Source of the DNA: Desulfobulbaceae bacterium
GTDB lineage: Bacteria > Desulfobacterota > Desulfobulbia > Desulfobulbales > BM004
Reading direction: 5' to 3'
Assembly (NCBI GenBank): GCA_002868955.1
Contig: PKTW01000020.1
Location: forward strand, 1-58,918
DNA: 58,918 nucleotides
Shown: one piece after another, positions 2,949-52,457 of the stretch
Layout of the letters: every line of letters begins with the position of its first letter
Numbering within the stretch: the stretch's first letter is position 1
Translations under genes and position numbers: made by a program
The notes under the pieces: model-generated
Told to the model about the DNA's origin: nothing
What the model saw: the letters and a program-made list of their open reading frames with translations, nothing else
Databases searched by the model: none

Positions 2949-3075
2949 GGAAGCCCTCCCTGTTTTTGGGATACAAAATTTTACAAATCGTCTATGATAC
3001 TAATAAACTAGGATGAGCTATATTATAACCCTGCGCGCAGAAAAGAAAAGTTTTTAGAAAAGTAATTTTCACAAA

Positions 3076-23264: not shown

Positions 23265-23655
23265 TTTTATCTCCTAGATAGTTCTATCAATCCTGCTGAT
23301 AACAAAAATAGTGATTAAAGTCTTCATTATTAGGATGTTAGTCGGGCATCAACCGCACTGAATGGTTACAATATGACTCCTGTATTGTCAACGCACAATA
23401 ATAACTTGCGCAAGTCATATGAGTTACTTATAAGTAATATAAATAATTGAAAAGGGCTTCTAAATCTGCATGCACGGGCCCAATTCGTTTTATATTATTG
23501 GTAATGACAGTAGTGACTGCAGATAAGGAAGTGTACGTTTTAATGGGACATAAAGCGGGTTATCAATATTAATATATTGGCGTGCCGGCCTCTTATCTAT
23601 AAAAACATTAATATATTCATTTTGCTGTTCGTTTAAAAGAAAAAGGTGATGCAGG

Positions 23656-23898
23656 ATGTGTGTCGCAATACCATCGAAGATTATCAGCAAAGAAGGTTTA
23701 TTGGCGACCATTGAGGTATATGGTGCCAGGCGCCAGGTCAATCTCATGCTGCTCCCTGAAGAGGCAGAAATAGGCGATTATGTACTTGTGCATGCCGGTT
23801 TTGCTATTCAGAAGGTTGATGTTGAGGCTGGAAAGGAGTCATTAAAGCTTTTTGACGAAGTTTTGCGGACAATGGGAGTGGATCCTGAAAATGCATGA
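23656..23898 (+). CDS. hypC: [NiFe]-hydrogenase maturation chaperone HypC/HupF family
   Basis: 80 aa starting MCVAIPSKI, with the essential Cys2 and an OB-fold-sized body. Confidence 0.9.
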   Translation: MCVAIPSKIISKEGLLATIEVYGARRQVNLMLLPEEAEIGDYVLVHAGFAIQKVDVEAGKESLKLFDEVLRTMGVDPENA

Positions 23899-24235
23899 GG
23901 CATCTATTGTCATGAGTTTGCTTGAGACGGTTTCCGACCTTTGTCAGCAGGAAGGCTATAACTCCATAGAATCGGTGCGGCTTAAAGTGGGAAAGGTGGC
24001 AGGAATACTTCCTGAAGCGCTTCTCTTTGCGTTTGATGCGGCAAAGTCAGATACTATTGCCAATAAAGCGGAATTGATCATTGAATATGTTGCCCTCGGT
24101 GGTTTTTGTTGTGACTGCGGTTCGCAGTTTGACTCTGAAGAACGATACATATATGCCTGTCCTGCCTGCAAATCCAGCGCGATAAAAATTACCAGAGGAG
24201 ACGAGTTGCAGATAATTGACATGGAAGTAAACTGA
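23891..24235 (+). CDS. hypA: Hydrogenase nickel-insertion protein HypA
   Basis: Starts MHEASIVMSLLE, the HypA N-terminal MHE nickel site. C-terminal zinc site CCDCG...CPAC. The start overlaps the hypC stop (ATGCATGA). Confidence 0.88.
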   Translation: MHEASIVMSLLETVSDLCQQEGYNSIESVRLKVGKVAGILPEALLFAFDAAKSDTIANKAELIIEYVALGGFCCDCGSQFDSEERYIYACPACKSSAIKITRGDELQIIDMEVN

Positions 24236-24305
24236 ATAACTAGCGCAGGTTCCAATCAAAAAATAAATTTGTATATTCCGCCCAACATAATCCCGGTGAA
24301 ATCCA

Positions 24306-25163
24306 ATGATACGATTGTCAAATAGTGGGGTCATAATACCTTTTCTAATGCTTTTGGCTTTTATGCCAGTTGCTACAGCCCAGGCAAAAGTCGACTGGGA
24401 AGTTTCCAGTGCTGTCCAGCTTGATGAAACACCCATAGATATTGCCCAAACACAAGGCGGTGATCTAACATTTCTTCTCACCGACGAGGCGAAAGTAGTC
24501 ATCTATTCAGCTGCCGGTAAAATTGTCGGCACGATACCGGTCGACCCCTCTGTGACTGACATTGCCGTTTCTGCAAAAGGTGAGCAGCTCTATCTTATAA
24601 ACAGTAAGCGCAAGACACTGCAAACGGTTGATATAAATTTCATCGTTGAAATAAATGCTGGGGATTCACCCTTTCTTGGGCCTGCCGGAGCCAAGGTTGT
24701 GCTTGCTGTTTTCAGTGATTTCCAATGACCTTACTGCGGCAAGATGATGCCGCTATTCGAGCAGGTGCTCGACAAATACCCTGACAGTGTAAAAGTGGTT
24801 TTCAAGCATTATCCGTTATCTTTTCACGAGCAGGCGCTTCCGGCGGCTCTTGCCTCCATGGCAGCTGCGGAGCAGGGCAAGTTCTGGGAGTATCATGACG
24901 AACTTTTTATCAACCAGAAAAGTCTGGACCAGAAAAAATATCTGGAAATCGCCGAAAATCTGGGCTTGGATCTCAAGAAATTTTCTCTTGATATGATGAG
25001 GCCCTCGTTGCGCCAGAAAATTGAACAGGATGTTGCTGAGGCCAAAAAAGCAGGCGTCACTGGAACCCCTACCATTTTTGTTAATGGCAGGAAAGTGAAG
25101 AACCGTGGTATTGCAGCCATAAGCAAACTCATTGATGAAGAACTTGCTGACGGAAACAATTAA
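24306..25163 (+). CDS. Secreted DsbA/BdbD-like thiol:disulfide oxidoreductase with in-frame TGA (24726-24728), probably read as selenocysteine
   Basis: Track ORFs 24306-24728 and 24744-25163 are in the same frame. Reading through the TGA gives ...VVLAVFSDFQ-U-PYCGKMMPLFEQ..., so the TGA sits at the first Cys of the FxDFxCPxC redox motif. The protein has the signal peptide MIRLSNSGVIIPFLMLLAFMPVATAQA, and a hairpin lies just downstream of the TGA. Confidence 0.7.
24736..24753 (+). promoter_or_regulatory. Candidate bacterial SECIS hairpin
   Basis: Perfect stem GCGGCA/TGCCGC with loop AGAUGA, beginning 7 nt after the UGA. The loop apex is 16-21 nt from the UGA, and G is the second loop base. 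A second hairpin, CGAGCA-GG-TGCTCG, lies at 24758-24771. Confidence 0.55.
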
Positions 25164-25190
25164 CAATCAAGAAGGGCTAATAGCCGGCAT

Positions 25191-26192
25191 ATGTCTAAAA
25201 AAAAGCTTACTTTCGAAGATAATAATTTAACAAGGCTGTTATATGGCGATCTGAATAAAAATTTGAGCACTATCGAAAGAACAGTTGGCGTTTCTGTAAA
25301 AACAAGGGGAAATGAACTGACACTTGAGGGTTTGCAGCATGAAGTTGAACTGGCGGCAATCGCACTGGAGCAATTATACGAGCTGCTGAAGGCCGGTTAC
25401 CCTGTATATCCTACAGATGTGGCTTACGGGCTGCGTATTCTTGAGCGCTCGTCAAAGGCCAACCTGAAAGAAATATTCCTTGACCGGGTTTATATTACTG
25501 CAAACCAGAGGGTGGTTTCCCCGAAAAGCGTCAACCAGAAAAAATATATTGATTCGATAAGGAATAATGACATTGTTTTTGGTATAGGTCCGGCCGGTAC
25601 CGGCAAGACCTATTTGGCCGTGGCAATGGCCATCTCAGCATTAACCGGCAGCCAGGTTAAAAATATTATACTGACACGGCCAGCTGTTGAAGCGGGAGAG
25701 AAACTTGGTTTTCTTCCCGGGGACATGGCCCAGAAAGTTGATCCTTATCTGCGCCCTCTGTACGATGCCTTAAATGATATGCTGGGAAGGGAGAAAGTCG
25801 TTGAATATATTGAGCGGGGAATAGTAGAGATAGCACCCCTTGCCTTTATGCGCGGACGCACATTGAACAGCGCTTTTGTAATTCTTGATGAAGCCCAGAA
25901 TACCTCCCATGAACAGATGAAAATGTTCCTCACCAGACTCGGGTTTGATTCCAAAGCTGTTATTACCGGGGATATAACCCAGATAGACCTGCCGGCAGGA
26001 AAACAGTCAGGACTTATTGAGGCGTCCCGCATTCTGAAAAGCATTAAAGGCATAGGATTCTGCACGTTTACCGATGTGGATGTTGTCCGTCATCCGCTGG
26101 TGCAGCAGGTTATCCGGGCTTATGCCAAGAAAGAAATGAAGCAGGGTGATAAACAAAGCAGGACAAGAAAGTTAAAGTCAGCCAAGAAATAG
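25191..26192 (+). CDS. phoH: PhoH-family ATPase (YbeZ-like)
   Basis: P-loop GPAGTGKTYLAV and a PhoH C-terminal core. It lies upstream of ybeY, as in the conserved ybeZ-ybeY arrangement. Confidence 0.92.
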   Translation: MSKKKLTFEDNNLTRLLYGDLNKNLSTIERTVGVSVKTRGNELTLEGLQHEVELAAIALEQLYELLKAGYPVYPTDVAYGLRILERSSKANLKEIFLDRVYITANQRVVSPKSVNQKKYIDSIRNNDIVFGIGPAGTGKTYLAVAMAISALTGSQVKNIILTRPAVEAGEKLGFLPGDMAQKVDPYLRPLYDALNDMLGREKVVEYIERGIVEIAPLAFMRGRTLNSAFVILDEAQNTSHEQMKMFLTRLGFDSKAVITGDITQIDLPAGKQSGLIEASRILKSIKGIGFCTFTDVDVVRHPLVQQVIRAYAKKEMKQGDKQSRTRKLKSAKK

Positions 26193-26254: not shown

Positions 26255-27424
26255 ATGCCTGTTCTTTTTAGAAATGAGTTCTGGAGCCAACTACCCCGGG
26301 TCAACGAAGCGCTGGTGCGGCGGACAGCGGAGCGTCTCCTGGTATTGACGGGGATGCCCGATGCAGAATTGAGTCTCCTCCTGGCAGATGATAAACAGAT
26401 TGCCGAGTTAAACAGTTCCTGGCGCAGGAAAAACGGTCCAACCAATGTCTTGGCTTTTTCATTGACAGAGGGGACCGATTCTGCAATGGCCCTGAATATG
26501 CTTGGTGATATCGTCATTTCAGTGGAGATTGCTGCCCGGGAAGCAGAAAAAGCGGGACTTTCCCTGCATTCGCACTTGCAGGAACTGCTTGTACATGGAT
26601 TTCTGCATCTTATAGGGTATGATCATGAAAAGTCAGGTTCTGAGGCAGTAAGAATGCATAACAAAGAAAGAGAACTTTTGCAGGAACTTACGAAAAAGAG
26701 GAGAGAGAAAATGATAAAACTCGCGGTAAATGTCGATCATGTTGCAACGTTACGTGAGGCTCGCGGCACCAGCGAGCCCGATCCCGTTCTTGCCGCAGGC
26801 ATCTGCGAACTTGCGGGAGCTGAAGGCATTGTCGTCCATTTACGTGAGGATAGAAGACATATCCAGGACCGGGATGTCAGGTTGCTGCGCCAGACGGTTA
26901 AAACGAAACTCAATCTGGAAATGGGGGCAACGGAGGAGATTATCAAGTTCGCCCTGGACATACAGCCGGATATGGTGACCCTTGTGCCTGAAAAAAGAAA
27001 GGAGTTAACCACGGAAGGCGGGTTAAATGTAGCCGGCCAGAAAAAGAAGCTCAAAATGGTAATCGACCGGATGAATGATGCTGGAATTCCGGTGAGTTTA
27101 TTTGTTGACCCGGACTCTCGCCAGATTGGGGCGGCGAAGGACGCCGGAGCCACTTTTGTGGAAATCCATACCGGCAGATACTCTGATGCTGCAGGTGAAG
27201 AAGAAAGAGATCAGGAGTTTGAATTGATAGCATCTGCTGCTGAAGAGGCCTATGAAGCAGGACTGAGGGTGAATGCCGGACATGGACTTAACTATTTTAA
27301 TACTGGCAGGATTGCCGCGCTTGATACCATCGAAGAACTCAGCATAGGGCATGCCATAATGGCGCGCGCCATTATGGTTGGACTGGACCAGGCTGTGCGT
27401 GAGATGCTGGGCCTTATGATTTGA
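26255..27424 (+). CDS. In-frame fusion of rRNA maturation RNase YbeY (residues 1-152) and pyridoxine 5'-phosphate synthase PdxJ (153-389)
   Basis: The YbeY metal motif [12 protein letters not shown] is followed ~35 aa later, with no stop, by [19 protein letters not shown]...[10 protein letters not shown]...NLEM...EIHTG...NAGHGL (PdxJ). The internal ATG at 26711 is preceded by GAGGAGAG. Confidence 0.85.
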
Positions 27425-40494: not shown

Positions 40495-43400
40495 TTAGTT
40501 GCCCGCTCCCTTGAAAATGGAGTTTGTGTTATGTAGAAGTTCAAGTACTTCTTCCATGCGCATGCCCCTTGAGCCTTTAACTAAAAACCAATCACCGGAT
40601 TCGATCTTGCCCTCCTGTACTAATTTCTGCAGCCAGAAGGCCAGATCTTTCTTGCTGTTGAATCCTTTGGCCGCAGCCGGGTCCATGCCGGCATTTCTTG
40701 CACTTGTGACCATGTTTTCTGCCTGGTTGCCGAAAGCGGCCAGAAAGTCGATGCCAAGCCTTTGCACTGCAGTGCCCAAAGCCGTGTGAGCTTCATCAGT
40801 TTTAATGCCTAACTCCAGCATGTCGCCCAGAACAGCCACAGCCCGGCGGTTTTTTTTCAGGTCCACCAGGGTGTTAAGGGCAGCCAGCATTGATGCAGGG
40901 TTGGCATTATAACAGTCGTTTAGCACCCTTACGCCTGAAGGCAGCTCTTCAACGCGGGCCCGTTTGTCATGAGGCCTGAAAGCAGCAAGTCCACTGGTAA
41001 TTTCATCAATGCAGATGCCGGATCCGTGGGCCATTGCAGCTGCAGCAAGACTGTTTGTCACATTGTGCTTGCCCAGGCCCTGAATTGCGACCTGTCGTGT
41101 TTCTGTGCCGATATGGAGGCTAAATTTCATGCCGTTTTCACCCAGGCTTTGTATATTTGTTGCGCGAACAAGTGCATCCGGATGGCAGCCAAAGAATATT
41201 TTTTCCTGCCCTAATGCGGCAGCAAGAGAACTGACAATTTCGTCATCCAGGTTGACCGCGACCTTGCTCTCTGGTTTGAGGCCGGCAAAAAGTTCGTTCT
41301 TGGCTCGGGCCACTCCCCAGATATCTCCGAGACCTTCCAGGTGCGCCTCTTGAACGTTAATGATGCAGGCAACATCCGGATCGGCAATTTCCGTTAACCT
41401 GGCAATTTCACCTGGCCTGTTCATGCCCATTTCCAACACAGCTATCTCGTGCTCCGGTTCTAGTCTGAAAAGGGTTAAGGGCAGGCCGATCAGGTTATTG
41501 AAATTGCCTTCGGTTTTTAAAATTGCATGACTTTGACTGAGAATAGCCCCGACCATTTCCTTGACCGTGGTTTTACCGGAACTGCCGGTTATGGCAAGGA
41601 CCCGCAAATCATTATTCCAGCGCCGCAAATTGCCGGCGAGTTGACCGAGGGCGGCAAGTGTATCGGGCACCAGCAGGACAGGGGTGGACTGGTGAAAATC
41701 CATATCAGGTTGACTCTGGCCAGGGACGTGATTAATGAGAAGTCCGCTTGCCCCTTTTTGTATTGCTTTGCCGCAGAAGTTACTGCCATCAAAGTTTTCA
41801 CCTTTCAGGGCAACAAAGAGATCGCCGGCTTGAATTGTCCTGGTATCGGTAGAAATGTTCTTGAAGGTTACGGATTTTTCAAGGGGAAAGAGAAGTTGTG
41901 CGCCGGTGATCTGTTGCACCCATTCAAGTTTCCAGGCTGGGGGTGCGCCGGACTTTGCCTGCAGTTGCATTTCAGCTTCAATCCGATCATCGAAGAAAAT
42001 TGTTCCTTTTCTGTTAATCTGATAATTTTCATGCCCTTTGCCGCTGATGAGGACGACATCATCCGGTTTGGCAAATCTGATAGCAGTACTGACTGCAACG
42101 TGCCGGTTCACCAGGATGTCATATCCTTTTCCCTCCTGCCGTATGAGAGTTTCTGGAGCTGATACCTTTTTAAGGCCGCTACTGCATAGTCCCTCTTCAA
42201 TCTGTGCCAGTATCATATCAGGGGACTCGGAACGGGGATTATCTGAGGTTGCCAGCACCACATCGCACAGTTCGCCTGCAATTTGCCCCATAAGAACCCT
42301 TTTGCCGCGATCACGGTCGCCGCCGCAGCCAAAAACACAGACCAGCCGTTTGGGTTTGAGTTTCAGCAGGGCAGTCAATACATTTTCAAGGGCATCTGGA
42401 GTATGGGCGTAATCGATAAAAACTGCAGGGCAGGCTGCGGTTGTTTTTTCAAGCCCAACCCTTTCGAGCCTGCCGGGAATAGTTTTTACATCTTCCAGAC
42501 CATTTTTCATGCAGCCCGGCATTTCACCATGAGCTACACCAATACCGATGGCGCAGAGTATATTCCGTAGGTTGAATTCGCCAACCAGAGGAGTTGTCAG
42601 TGACATGGTCCAGGCAGGAGTTGTGATGTCAGAAGAAATGCCGTTGATGTCTATGGTGAAATCATGCGGGTGTATATCGCAGTCACGACTCATGCCACAT
42701 GTTATCATTAAAGGCGAATCTTCTCTGGTCTGAAACAAGGACAGCAACTCCGCATGCATCTGTTTACTCCAGTTATTGCTTTCACAGGATGCAGCGCTGT
42801 TATCCATTGCCTGATCTGCAGCAACATCAAGTACAATGACGATGCGGCCCCCGGGTTTTATATAATCGGTGAAAAGCAGTTTTTTGCTCGTGAAATAATG
42901 ATGCATGTCAGTGTGAAAATCCAGGTGGTCCCTGCTTAAATTGGTAAATACGCCTATATCAAATCCCAGTCCCGTAAGTCTTGACTGGGCCAGGGCATGT
43001 GACGATACTTCCATGACCACATCGGTGATATTCTCGTCAGCCATCGTGCGCAGCAATGCAAAGAGGGTAGGTGATTCCGGTGTTGTAAAAGGGGCTTCCA
43101 TTTCAATGTGCTTGTTGTTTTTGTCGTTATAGCGATAGTTGACGGTACCGATTACTCCCGGACGCCTGCCGCAGGCCTTTAACATGGACTCAACCAGAAA
43201 AGTTGTAGTTGTTTTGCCGTTTGTTCCTGTCACCCCGATCACGGTGAGTTGCCGGTCAGGATGGTCATAGTAGTTCGCCGCCACATTACCCAGGGCAGTT
43301 TTAGTATCAGTGACCTCCACTATTGCAACCCGGGGCCAATCCTCAGCACCCGGCGCGTATTCCTGCCAACCCTGATTTACCAATAGGGCGGAGCAACCTG

Positions 43401-43596
43401 CGGCAACTGCCTGGTCCAGATAGTTGTGCCCATCAACAGAAAGACCTTTAAGGGCGGCAAACATATTCCCAGGCTGAACCTTCCTTGAATCTGAACAAAG
43501 TCCGGTAATTTCAGTTTTTTCAAAATCTCCGGTGATGTTGTATTCTACTCCTTCAAGTAAGATTTTGAGTTGTTTTGCTGTTGTAAGTGCCGACAT
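40495..43596 (-). CDS. Fused MurE (meso-DAP-adding ligase) + MurF (D-Ala-D-Ala-adding ligase), 1033 aa
   Basis: N-terminal half: [13 protein letters not shown] and DNPRSE (MurE). The frame stays open through ...[36 protein letters not shown]... (around 41900-41990) into a second Mur ligase with [12 protein letters not shown] (MurF). Confidence 0.88.
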
Positions 43597-51101: not shown

Positions 51102-52457
51102 TTACTTATCGGCACCCTGCCCGGAAAGCACATTCAGGCTTTTGAGAACAAGCAGTGCGGTGCTGAGCTGGTTGTCGTCCTTGAGCTTTTCTTTTGTTGC
51201 CTCTTCAATCGTGACCTTATCTGAAATCAAGTTGCTTTCATCGATGGTCGGAGGCTGGGGTTTCTCATCTGCAGGTTGCAAGTCGCCTCCATTTTCAAGG
51301 TGATGCCGCAAATCCTTTTCCCTGAAAAATTCCCCGGGTCCCTTTGGGGTGTCTTCTTCAGCAGCAACACTTTTAGGAACAAGAACATCGGGGGTAATAC
51401 CGGTTGCCTGGATGGAGGTTCCGCTTGGCGTATAATACCGTGCAGTAGTGAGTCGCAGTCCGGCACCGTCGGCCATGGGGATGATGGTCTGCACAGAGCC
51501 CTTACCAAAGGACTGGGTGCCAAGAATGAGTGCTCTTTTATGATCCTGCAGGGCTCCGGCCACAATCTCTGATGCAGAGGCAGTGCCGCCGTTTATCAAA
51601 ATGACTATGGGGAAATCGTATTCCGCTCCGCCGCTGTGTGCTGAAAATTCCATATTCTGGTCTTGAAGACGGCCCTTGGTGGAAACAATAATGCCTTCAT
51701 CCAGAAAAATGTCCACGATCTTTACCGAAGAATCCAGAAGCCCCCCCGGGTTATTACGCAGGTCAAGAACTAATCCTTTAAGAGCTCCTTCTTTAATTAG
51801 GTCTTCAAGGCTGTTCTGTAGGTCCTGAGAGGTGTTTCTCTGGAAGTTGGTGATCCGGATATATCCGTATCCGGTTTCAAGAACACTGTCGCGCACAGAG
51901 TGAATCGGTATTACGTCCCTGATAATGGTAAACTCCTGCAGGTCTGTCCAGTCTTCGCGATGAATTGAAATGGTGACCTCAGAACCTTTTTGCCCACGTA
52001 GTTTTTTTATAGCGTCAAGTAATGACATTTCCTTGGTGGATTCGCCCTCAATCTTAATGATCCTGTCTCCTGCCTGGATGCCTGCCTTGAAGGCAGGAGT
52101 GTCCTCAATGGGCGAGACAACGGTAAGCATGTCGTCCTTGAGGGTAATTTCAATACCAATGCCGCTGAAAGTGCCCGTAGTTTCGACCTGGAGTTCCTTG
52201 AAATCATCCGGTTTTAAAAAGGAGGAATGGGGGTCCAGGCTTGTGAGCATTCCCTTAATTGCTCCCTCAATGGTTTCCTGCGTGTCAATGTCATCGACAT
52301 AATTCTGTTGGACGATGCTGAGGACATTTGCGAAGACCTCGAGATTCTTATAGGTTTCCTGCGCATCATCATATGATTCCAGGGCCTGAAGGTTCCTGGC
52401 AAAGAATAGAGGGAGAATAAGAAGCGTGATGGGGAGAACTTTTTTAAACGTAATCAT
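51102..52457 (-). CDS. ctpA: S41 family C-terminal processing peptidase
   Basis: Signal peptide, PDZ domain (GIQAGDRIIKIEG), catalytic Ser in GGTASASEI and Lys in SFGKGSVQ. Confidence 0.9.
   Translation of the reverse strand: MITFKKVLPITLLILPLFFARNLQALESYDDAQETYKNLEVFANVLSIVQQNYVDDIDTQETIEGAIKGMLTSLDPHSSFLKPDDFKELQVETTGTFSGIGIEITLKDDMLTVVSPIEDTPAFKAGIQAGDRIIKIEGESTKEMSLLDAIKKLRGQKGSEVTISIHREDWTDLQEFTIIRDVIPIHSVRDSVLETGYGYIRITNFQRNTSQDLQNSLEDLIKEGALKGLVLDLRNNPGGLLDSSVKIVDIFLDEGIIVSTKGRLQDQNMEFSAHSGGAEYDFPIVILINGGTASASEIVAGALQDHKRALILGTQSFGKGSVQTIIPMADGAGLRLTTARYYTPSGTSIQATGITPDVLVPKSVAAEEDTPKGPGEFFREKDLRHHLENGGDLQPADEKPQPPTIDESNLISDKVTIEEATKEKLKDDNQLSTALLVLKSLNVLSGQGADK

Follow-up and report, generated by a model that had tools for sequence, protein, structure and literature searches.

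The window referred to in this report is a stretch of 58,918 nucleotides (nt) from a Desulfobulbaceae bacterium (contig PKTW01000020.1, positions 1 to 58,918 of the forward strand). Its plus strand harbours, at 24306..25163, a gene for a DsbA-like precursor protein in which an in-frame UGA, very probably read as selenocysteine (Sec), takes the place of the first active-site cysteine codon. Two open reading frames (ORFs) are listed at this locus. The upstream one (24306..24728) encodes 140 amino acids (aa) and is terminated by the TGA at 24726-24728, past which its frame stays open up to the TAA at 25161-25163. The downstream one (24744..25163) begins at an internal Met and lies in the same frame. 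Read through, the junction is VVLAVFSDFQ-[UGA]-PYCGK. In public gene calls the locus appears as two products of 140 aa and 138/139 aa, and gene calls split at this TGA are likewise found in six other assemblies. Within the subfamily, some of the N-terminal halves bear the public name 'DNA-binding beta-propeller fold protein YncE' (JGI label 'YncE'), while the C-terminal halves are called 'DsbA family protein' or 'protein-disulfide isomerase'. The initial annotation had described two same-frame ORFs separated by nothing but this TGA, as can be read directly from the sequence, and had considered them a single periplasmic DsbA-like oxidoreductase gene divided by ORF calling. The features of the gene are as follows.

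24306..25163, plus strand: single gene for the DsbA-like precursor; 285 sense-or-UGA codons followed by TAA 25161-25163
24306..24386, plus strand: signal peptide, aa 1-27, MIRLSNSGVIIPFLMLLAFMPVATAQA followed by KVDW (by inspection)
24387..24659, plus strand: N-terminal all-beta module, aa 28-118 (AlphaFold2, Foldseek)
24660..25160, plus strand: DsbA/BdbD/ScsC-type thioredoxin-fold catalytic domain with helical insertion, aa 119-285 (Pfam, Foldseek)
24726..24728, plus strand: proposed Sec codon UGA, residue 141, in frame; next base C, giving the context UGAC
24726..24737, plus strand: redox motif U-P-Y-C (UGA CCU UAC UGC), the UxxC version of CPYC, from U141 to C144
24736..24753, plus strand: hairpin 1, GCGGCA-AGAUGA-UGCCGC, with a perfect 6-bp stem (24736-24741/24748-24753)
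24757..24772, plus strand: hairpin 2, UCGAGC-AGGU-GCUCGA, with a 6-bp stem and a 4-nt loop
25065..25070, plus strand: Thr254-Pro255 of the conserved GTPT loop, invariant in the homologue alignment (A1)

The two annotated "genes" form a single gene, since one Pfam domain as well as one predicted DsbA fold extend across the UGA; the product would be an enzyme of disulfide exchange and is presumably exported. With Cys inserted in place of the UGA, the translation is recognised by Thioredoxin_4 (PF13462, E-value 2.5e-28, 99.8 bits, cut-off 23.2) and by DSBA (PF01323, E-value 1.1e-19, 71.4 bits, cut-off 25.6), and the matched region constitutes one domain from aa 119 to aa 278 which crosses the codon. 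An AlphaFold2 model built from a 23-sequence alignment reveals a DsbA fold with helical insertion at a mean predicted local distance difference test score (pLDDT) of 89.6. Here, the UGA is located between the beta-strand formed by residues 131-137 and the helix formed by residues 144-157, i.e. where the CxxC motif is classically located. Domain and fold thus bear out the single-gene proposal of the initial annotation as well as its statement that neither half makes up a thioredoxin fold alone: the downstream half is devoid of beta-strand 1, of the nucleophile and of the signal peptide. Foldseek retrieves for the catalytic domain 3gyk (E 3.9e-12), BdbD (3eu3), Wolbachia alpha-DsbA2 (6eez), ScsC (7rgv/4xvw) and DsbA proper. 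Judging from general knowledge of thioredoxin-fold enzymes, we take Thr254-Pro255 to be the cis-Pro loop opposite the active site. Upon inspection the signal peptide reads as classical, with an A-x-A cleavage site (AQA followed by K) and no lipobox Cys. In the model this region appears as a short helix of low pLDDT, and homologues possess equivalent hydrophobic N-termini. As a separate observation, a scan for TGA codons with at least 60 open codons on each side revealed no second protein-like junction of this kind in the window.

Comparison with relatives assigns the UGA to a catalytic position. In the alignment with full-length homologues, by which the initial annotation had wished to see its assignment of the UGA to the first active-site Cys checked, the UGA column is occupied by Cys in 22/22 sequences (280-330 aa, 42-48% identity), which originate from Desulfobulbaceae, Desulfopila and related metagenome-assembled genomes (MAGs) and contain the DsbA domain together with the N-terminal module. 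When species-representative genomes are compared, 13 loci sharing the architecture show TGA at the aligned position, as do five with other architectures or from other phyla, and nine loci sharing the architecture show TGC or TGT; altogether, TGA is present at this codon in at least 55 other species from several phyla. The DNA pattern F-x-D-[FY]-[EQ]-TGA-P-[YH]-C occurs in at least 120 stretches, compared to about two expected by chance as estimated from the information content of the pattern and the size of the database. All 80 examined pattern loci are DsbA-like genes with TGA at that codon, and wherever the DNA extends far enough the frame remains open for at least 58 aa past it, mostly for about 140-190 aa; one of the 80 ends at its match, so that the open frame cannot be judged there. 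The N-terminal module is present in 36 of them. A HMMER search with the 140-aa half against 1.84 billion cluster representatives yielded 643 relatives. Among the best 150 of these (50%-identity clusters), 113 terminate directly behind F-x-D-F-Q while in 29 CxxC follows, which corresponds to a ratio of Sec to Cys forms of about 4:1. A conserved UGA accompanied by Cys-containing counterparts is the pattern by which selenoprotein families are usually recognised in comparisons and, as judged from these sequences, the predicted Sec form is the majority state within the subfamily.

The codon is followed by two hairpins. Both the perfect 6-bp stem 7 nt past the UGA and the second hairpin behind it, as reported in the initial annotation, are present. 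Hairpin 1 begins 7 nt past the UGA (-10.7 kcal/mol, z = -3.9) and hairpin 2 a further 3 nt past hairpin 1 (-8.8 kcal/mol, z = -3.3); a folding energy of -19.5 kcal/mol (z = -3.5) is obtained for 55 nt from the UGA onwards and is equalled by 1 of 200 shuffles. Covariation was assessed in a gapless alignment (A2) covering 66 nt from the UGA in 42 Sec-form orthologues. Hairpin 2 is paired in 93.9% of the cells, and in about 99% if the six core pairs are considered, while controls slid along the alignment are paired to 25-52%. Five of its pairs are altered on both sides, and 22 double-change cells contrast with 6.2 +/- 1.9 in shuffled alignments, none out of 500 reaching this number. The third base of a Leu codon is complementary to the first base of a Glu/Gln codon in every case (G-C 30, C-G 12, mismatch 0), and some compensations are achieved at the cost of amino acid exchanges (E/L to Q/L, R/S, E/F or D/V). 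The loop reads AGGU in 34 orthologues and AGUU in eight. Hairpin 1 is paired in 98.8% of the cells of those 17 orthologues, the window among them, which carry a Cys-Gly codon pair; here, UGC/CCG alternates with UGU/CCA, converting a C-G into a U-A pair by two synonymous third-position changes (11 versus 6, no mismatch). The 25 Cys-Ala-Arg orthologues possess an equivalent of 5 bp which is shifted by 4 nt and paired to 77%. A common register of hairpin 1 for all orthologues had to be dismissed, as either register suits only about half of them; division by codon type resolved this. Size and sequence of the hairpin 1 loop vary, and G is found within its first two positions in only 9/42 cases. The nine Cys-form orthologues keep neither hairpin, and of the six hairpin 2 pairs just 0-5 are left in them. 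On average, hairpin 2 folds with -10.1 kcal/mol in Sec forms and -2.6 kcal/mol in Cys forms, hairpin 1 with -8.4 and -3.6 kcal/mol, respectively. Because the Cys forms keep neither structure, the comparison marks both hairpins as RNA-level features tied to the UGA.

The consensus of the bacterial Sec insertion sequence (SECIS) demands a loop of 3-9 nt, a stem of 4-16 bp and a minimum free energy of -7.5 kcal/mol or below (PMC13188914, Fig. 2 legend), and further a G at loop position 1 or 2, as a rule with G or U as the next base, as well as a distance of 16-37 nt from UGA to loop (PMC13188914). Hairpin 2 lies within all of these bounds in 42/42 orthologues, its loop being 34 nt away from the codon. 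In the window, the loop of hairpin 1 follows the codon after only 13 nt, compared to the 16 nt which the model requires at least. The initial annotation had placed this loop 16-21 nt from the UGA and had regarded hairpin 1 as the SECIS. The former figure is valid when counted from the U of the UGA, the gap between codon and loop being just those 13 nt. As to the latter, hairpin 1 is real, conserved and Sec-specific, yet it is the weaker candidate with regard to the rarity of G in its loop and to a spacing at or below the minimum. In other Sec-DsbA subfamilies, several of them from Desulfobulbales genomes, a single fdhF-like hairpin exposes a GUC or GGUC loop about 19-22 nt past the UGA. On account of these loops SelB of this order seems to recognise a small G-U loop as offered by hairpin 2 but not by hairpin 1, and hairpin 2 is, in our estimation, probably the SelB site with hairpin 1 as an accessory element. 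For the codon itself the comparative evidence makes it highly probable that the UGA is read as Sec and that the gene encodes a selenoprotein. With hardly less confidence, we consider the product an exported thiol:disulfide oxidoreductase of the DsbA/BdbD/ScsC type, the nucleophile of which would be Sec encoded by UGA 24726-24728 within U-P-Y-C.

A number of points have to be set against this interpretation. None of the genes selA, selB, selC and selD is found in the 58.9-kb window or within about 8 kb past either of its ends. ARAGORN and Rfam reveal no tRNA-Sec in the window, no sel gene is present among its ORFs of at least 280 aa, and the extensions of about 8 kb, taken from longer contigs of the same organism, contain just housekeeping genes. 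Searching 210 loci by tblastn with approximate E. coli SelD and SelB sequences as probes gave no match, and ARAGORN was negative for these loci too. The motif of the pyridoxal phosphate (PLP) site of SelA has diverse, genuine-looking matches in GTDB genomes, although among the matches listed none is tied to the window or to the genomes with Sec-DsbA genes. The Sec-decoding capacity of the source genome is thus assumed. By lineage, the organism falls within the Desulfobulbales/'Desulfobacterales SG8_35' group of estuarine sediments. Within the same family, Desulfotalea psychrophila (Desulfobulbaceae) possesses 12 selenoproteins including SelD (PMC1794560), and the Deltaproteobacteria are a selenoprotein-rich phylum (PMC5029168). 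Furthermore, no NCBIfam selenoprotein model reached its cut-off, the best being NF041057 with 74.9 bits compared to 190. No Rfam family matches the hairpin region; at permissive thresholds 24690-24810 gave chance-level matches to mir-223 and to the hepatitis A virus internal ribosome entry site (HAV IRES). The spacing of 34 nt for hairpin 2 is close to the upper limit of the model, and its loop coincides with conserved Gln-Val/Leu codons, so that part of the loop invariance may reflect a constraint on the protein. Finally, hairpin 1 covaries too.

This last point favours an alternative in which the gene encodes the same selenoprotein but SelB binds to hairpin 1, while hairpin 2 would be accessory or conserved for another reason. 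Hairpin 1 is, moreover, stable and specific to Sec forms, its loop carries in the window a G at position 2, and its position corresponds roughly to that of the single SECIS found both in the other Sec-DsbA subfamilies and in fdhF of E. coli, where a minimal 17-nt upper stem-loop 11 nt past the UGA binds SelB via G23 and U24 of its loop (PMC8659212). Nevertheless, the loop of hairpin 1 mostly lacks the early G, its register moves by 4 nt between the two groups of orthologues and its loop in the window is closer to the UGA than the model range allows (PMC13188914), while the AG[G/U]U loop of hairpin 2 is invariant and presents G-U in the same way as the GGUC and GUC loops of the other Desulfobulbales Sec-DsbA genes. 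Binding of SelB to hairpin 1 therefore appears unlikely to us, at roughly one chance in a few, and we keep to hairpin 2 as the probable site.

Explanations which dispense with Sec fare considerably worse. If the UGA were a true stop, the locus would give rise to an exported propeller fragment of 140 aa plus a cytoplasmic DsbA fragment of 139 aa, or a nonsense mutation would have turned the locus into a pseudogene. Gene callers as well as public annotation do keep the two halves apart, and the Sec machinery of this genome is, as stated, an assumption. Yet the stop would coincide exactly with the column of the catalytic Cys and leave the downstream half without beta-strand 1, nucleophile and signal peptide. 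In addition, 113 of 150 diverged clusters share the in-frame TGA, as do at least 55 species of several phyla, with the frame open beyond it, where a pseudogene would decay, and it is followed by RNA structure specific to Sec forms. We therefore consider a true stop very improbable. The same low probability is assigned to recoding of another kind, be it as Trp or Gly by a reassigned code or as Cys or Trp by near-cognate read-through. This reading draws on the fact that we infer rather than observe Sec insertion, and on the context UGAC, which is leaky for termination. Within the window, however, the 31 long ORFs are closed by TAA (14), TGA (14) and TAG (3) at a G+C content of 46%; as TGA closes 14 of 31, UGA is a normal terminator in the host organism and reassignment of the genetic code was rejected. 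Besides, the homologues always show the redox Cys at this column, never Trp or Gly, and conserved SECIS-type hairpins would be needless for simple read-through. Nothing was found in favour of a sequencing or assembly error in which TGA stands for TGC or TGT, a finding which the initial annotation had named as fatal to its proposal. Positions 24600-24900 are identical in contigs of four independent DNA runs from different studies (sediment, wetland and marine sediment) with a word depth of 10-63x, and 325 index blocks of public assemblies contain precisely this 140-aa product. The same TGA is present in six more long contigs from further assemblies, whose copies of the gene differ from that of the window at just 2-3 positions, and this agreement among close strains argues against a true stop as well. 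Metatranscriptome contigs over 24267-25488 and 23407-25930 show the UGA unchanged, though DNA carry-over in these libraries is possible; a strain variant among them differs by synonymous changes only, all of which are outside both stems. DNA and RNA contigs thus uniformly carry TGA, whereby the error explanation is refuted and its residual probability practically nil.

The N-terminal module consists, between residues 43 and 109, of seven strands arranged in two blades of the beta-propeller type with strand pLDDT values of about 90-96 in the AlphaFold2 model. Foldseek relates it to the propeller of hydrazine synthase (5c2v_B, E 2e-5), to an archaeal YVTN propeller (1l0q_A, root-mean-square deviation 2.0 Å over 69 columns), to WD40 proteins and to the designed propeller fragments 6r5z_A and 8pr9_A, which close only by oligomerising. 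The earlier description of this part as YVTN/beta-propeller-like is well in line with the two-blade fold and with the resemblance to the YVTN propeller. A closed propeller, comprising 4-10 four-stranded blades, is not formed by these seven strands in about two blades. No Pfam family, repeat families included, matches the module. It is common to Sec and Cys forms, and its unit recurs in 11-20 copies in two very large proteins. We propose that it serves as an oligomerisation or substrate-binding domain.

In the mechanism we envisage, the signal peptide would direct the enzyme to export via the secretory (Sec) pathway. Following the established bacterial route of Sec incorporation, a complex of SelB, GTP and Sec-tRNA(Sec) would be tethered to the structured mRNA just 3' of the UGA and would deliver Sec as the ribosome meets this codon, in competition with release factor 2 (RF2). 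Lack of selenium would lead to the 140-aa product consisting of signal peptide and N-terminal module. Hairpin 2 would provide the SelB-binding core distal to the UGA, while hairpin 1 would fill most of the long spacer and thereby bring hairpin 2 effectively closer to the codon. Once hairpin 1 has folded, 7 + 3 = 10 nt remain unpaired between UGA and hairpin 2, and since this is near the 11 nt of fdhF a spacer-compacting role is plausible by analogy. Alternatively, hairpin 1 may stall the ribosome at the entrance of the mRNA channel with the UGA in the A site; such a pausing role would be plausible, too. The N-terminal module may oligomerise and thus present several seleno-active sites, in which case the enzyme would act as an isomerase or reductase rather than as a simple oxidase. 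This assumption derives from the inability of a two-blade fragment to close alone and from the analogy with DsbC, ScsC and alpha-DsbA2. Taken as a whole, a two-part SECIS composed of a spacer hairpin and a distal G-G/U loop and differing from the fdhF type, a subfamily in which Sec predominates, and a multivalent seleno-isomerase assembled via propeller fragments form a tentative picture which is, as a whole, less likely than not.

Downstream, the gene is followed by two further genes on the same strand.

25191..26192, plus strand: phoH, 27 nt downstream of the DsbA-like gene and followed by the ybeY-pdxJ fusion
26255-27424, plus strand: ybeY and pdxJ fused in a single ORF of 389 aa (PF02130 and PF03740)

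The order DsbA-like gene, phoH, ybeY-pdxJ is kept in more than 25 loci of Sec and Cys forms, and phoH is probably co-transcribed with the DsbA-like gene. In most of the Desulfobulbales relatives examined, tblastn finds matches to ybeY-pdxJ just 3' of phoH. A functional link to the upstream genes hypC and hypA was considered and rejected, as hypC-hypA is kept only in the closest relative.

Further observations concern Sec-DsbA genes elsewhere. Additional subfamilies comprise a short type, 'IEFIDFQ-U-PHCVAAGP', from Nitrospirota and Desulfobulbales, and two more types, one from Chloroflexi and one from Acidobacteriota/Myxococcota. Many loci of these other subfamilies have one fdhF-like hairpin with GUC or GGUC loop, which is most evident in the PHCVAAGP and the Acidobacteriota/Myxococcota types. 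One Myxococcales locus (L067) contains two same-frame UGAs at 3061 and 3691, 630 nt apart, each occupying the active-site position within a DsbA-type F-S-D-F-Q-U-P-F-C motif, and two MAGs (JARGFW01 and JBDLID01) each harbour two separate Sec-DsbA paralogues.

Elsewhere in the window, Rfam reports Rp_sR47 (Rickettsia sRNA47) at 51487-51605 on the plus strand with 66.9 bits compared to a gathering score of 60. This match runs antisense within an S41 peptidase (ctpA-like) ORF (51102..52457, minus strand) and probably reflects conserved coding sequence, not a small RNA. An ORF of 1033 aa at 40495-43596 on the minus strand resembles, by its translation only, a murE-murF fusion of the dcw cluster. 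A stretch of 712 nt (1445-2157), flanked by a truncated hisH/F-like gene on one side and by a dienelactone hydrolase gene on the other, lacks a convincing gene. This stretch contains a 16-nt inverted repeat, TTTTGGGCAAGCAAAA (1691-1706) and TTTTGCTTGCCCAAAA (1763-1778), enclosing an AT-rich core, and no Rfam match occurs within it.

DsbA-like selenoproteins as such have been known for some time, in agreement with the initial annotation, which did not claim the family concept as new. Those with a UxxC motif were described in 2005 by Zhang, Fomenko and Gladyshev ('DsbA-like protein form 1', PF01323; PMC1088965, Table 3), and the same motif is given for them in PMC13188914, Table 1. Zhang et al. 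(2006) found them in Anaeromyxobacter, Desulfovibrio and Desulfotomaculum (PMC1794560), and another was reported in 2007 from the delta-symbiont of Olavius (PMC1976440). Peng et al. (2016) counted 45 genes in 41 organisms (PMC5029168), and reviews from 2022 and 2026 list these proteins with uncharacterised functions (PMC9312934, PMC13188914). The present gene is an unannotated further member of this established family. What may go beyond the published literature is the propeller fragment, the predominance of the Sec form and the two-hairpin signal with its distal consensus loop. No curated model bears the name of the subfamily, and the splitting of its genes in public calls would be in keeping with this.

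The consequences are, to begin with, a matter of annotation. Taking the 142 classable clusters among the best 150 of 643 relatives, 113, i.e. about four in five, are split at the Sec codon in public calls. With a curated model or flag for the subfamily, hundreds of entries from Desulfobacterota of sediments would be put right, and their selenoprotein counts would rise. A well-supported, presumably exported selenoenzyme, apparently transcribed in situ, is added to a lineage widespread in estuarine and marine sediments. Moreover, the locus offers a natural test case of how distant a bacterial SECIS loop can be and of whether an intervening hairpin compensates, a question bearing on design rules for recombinant selenoprotein expression. 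Current understanding is not overturned, as the enzyme belongs to an established family and the mechanism of recoding is established as well.

Compared to the known DsbA-like selenoproteins, the gene shares the DSBA/Thioredoxin_4 domain, predicted Sec as the first residue of UxxC, widespread Cys homologues, a SECIS-type hairpin directly downstream and an origin from Deltaproteobacteria/Desulfobacterota in sediment or marine metagenomes. It differs from them by the N-terminal two-blade module of about 90 aa, by two covarying hairpins with a consensus-type loop 34 nt from the UGA and by an excess of Sec over Cys forms of about 4:1. Among curated selenoprotein models the closest is NF041057 (Rcas_1661 family thioredoxin-like (seleno)lipoprotein), which likewise describes a thioredoxin-like domain; with a score far below the cut-off and without a lipobox, however, the gene is not a member of that family.

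At the RNA level, the obvious reference is fdhF, the SECIS loop of which reads GCA-GGUC-UGC. Both signals present a small apical loop with G-G-U (here GC-AGGU-GC) on a stable short stem situated in the coding sequence just past the UGA. The loop is found 34 nt past the UGA here and 18 nt in fdhF, and the present signal is further distinguished by a separate conserved hairpin in the spacer and by the lack of an evident bulged U.

As to the protein, Bacillus subtilis BdbD and 3gyk from Silicibacter pomeroyi, both of the Thioredoxin_4 type, are the best structure and sequence-family matches for aa 119-285, but they are Cys enzymes devoid of an N-terminal propeller fragment. The catalytic domain also superposes with ScsC from Proteus mirabilis and Caulobacter crescentus and with Wolbachia alpha-DsbA2, and the xPYC-type motif together with the Thr-Pro loop presumably resembles that of ScsC/DsbC-type enzymes. 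With the oligomeric isomerases and reductases ScsC and alpha-DsbA2 and, functionally, DsbC/DsbG, the gene product shares the presence of an additional module on the N-terminal side of the catalytic domain. In contrast to the helical or DsbC-type dimerisation domains of ScsC, alpha-DsbA2 and DsbC, this module consists of propeller blades, and where those enzymes employ Cys as the nucleophile, the predicted nucleophile of the present one is Sec.

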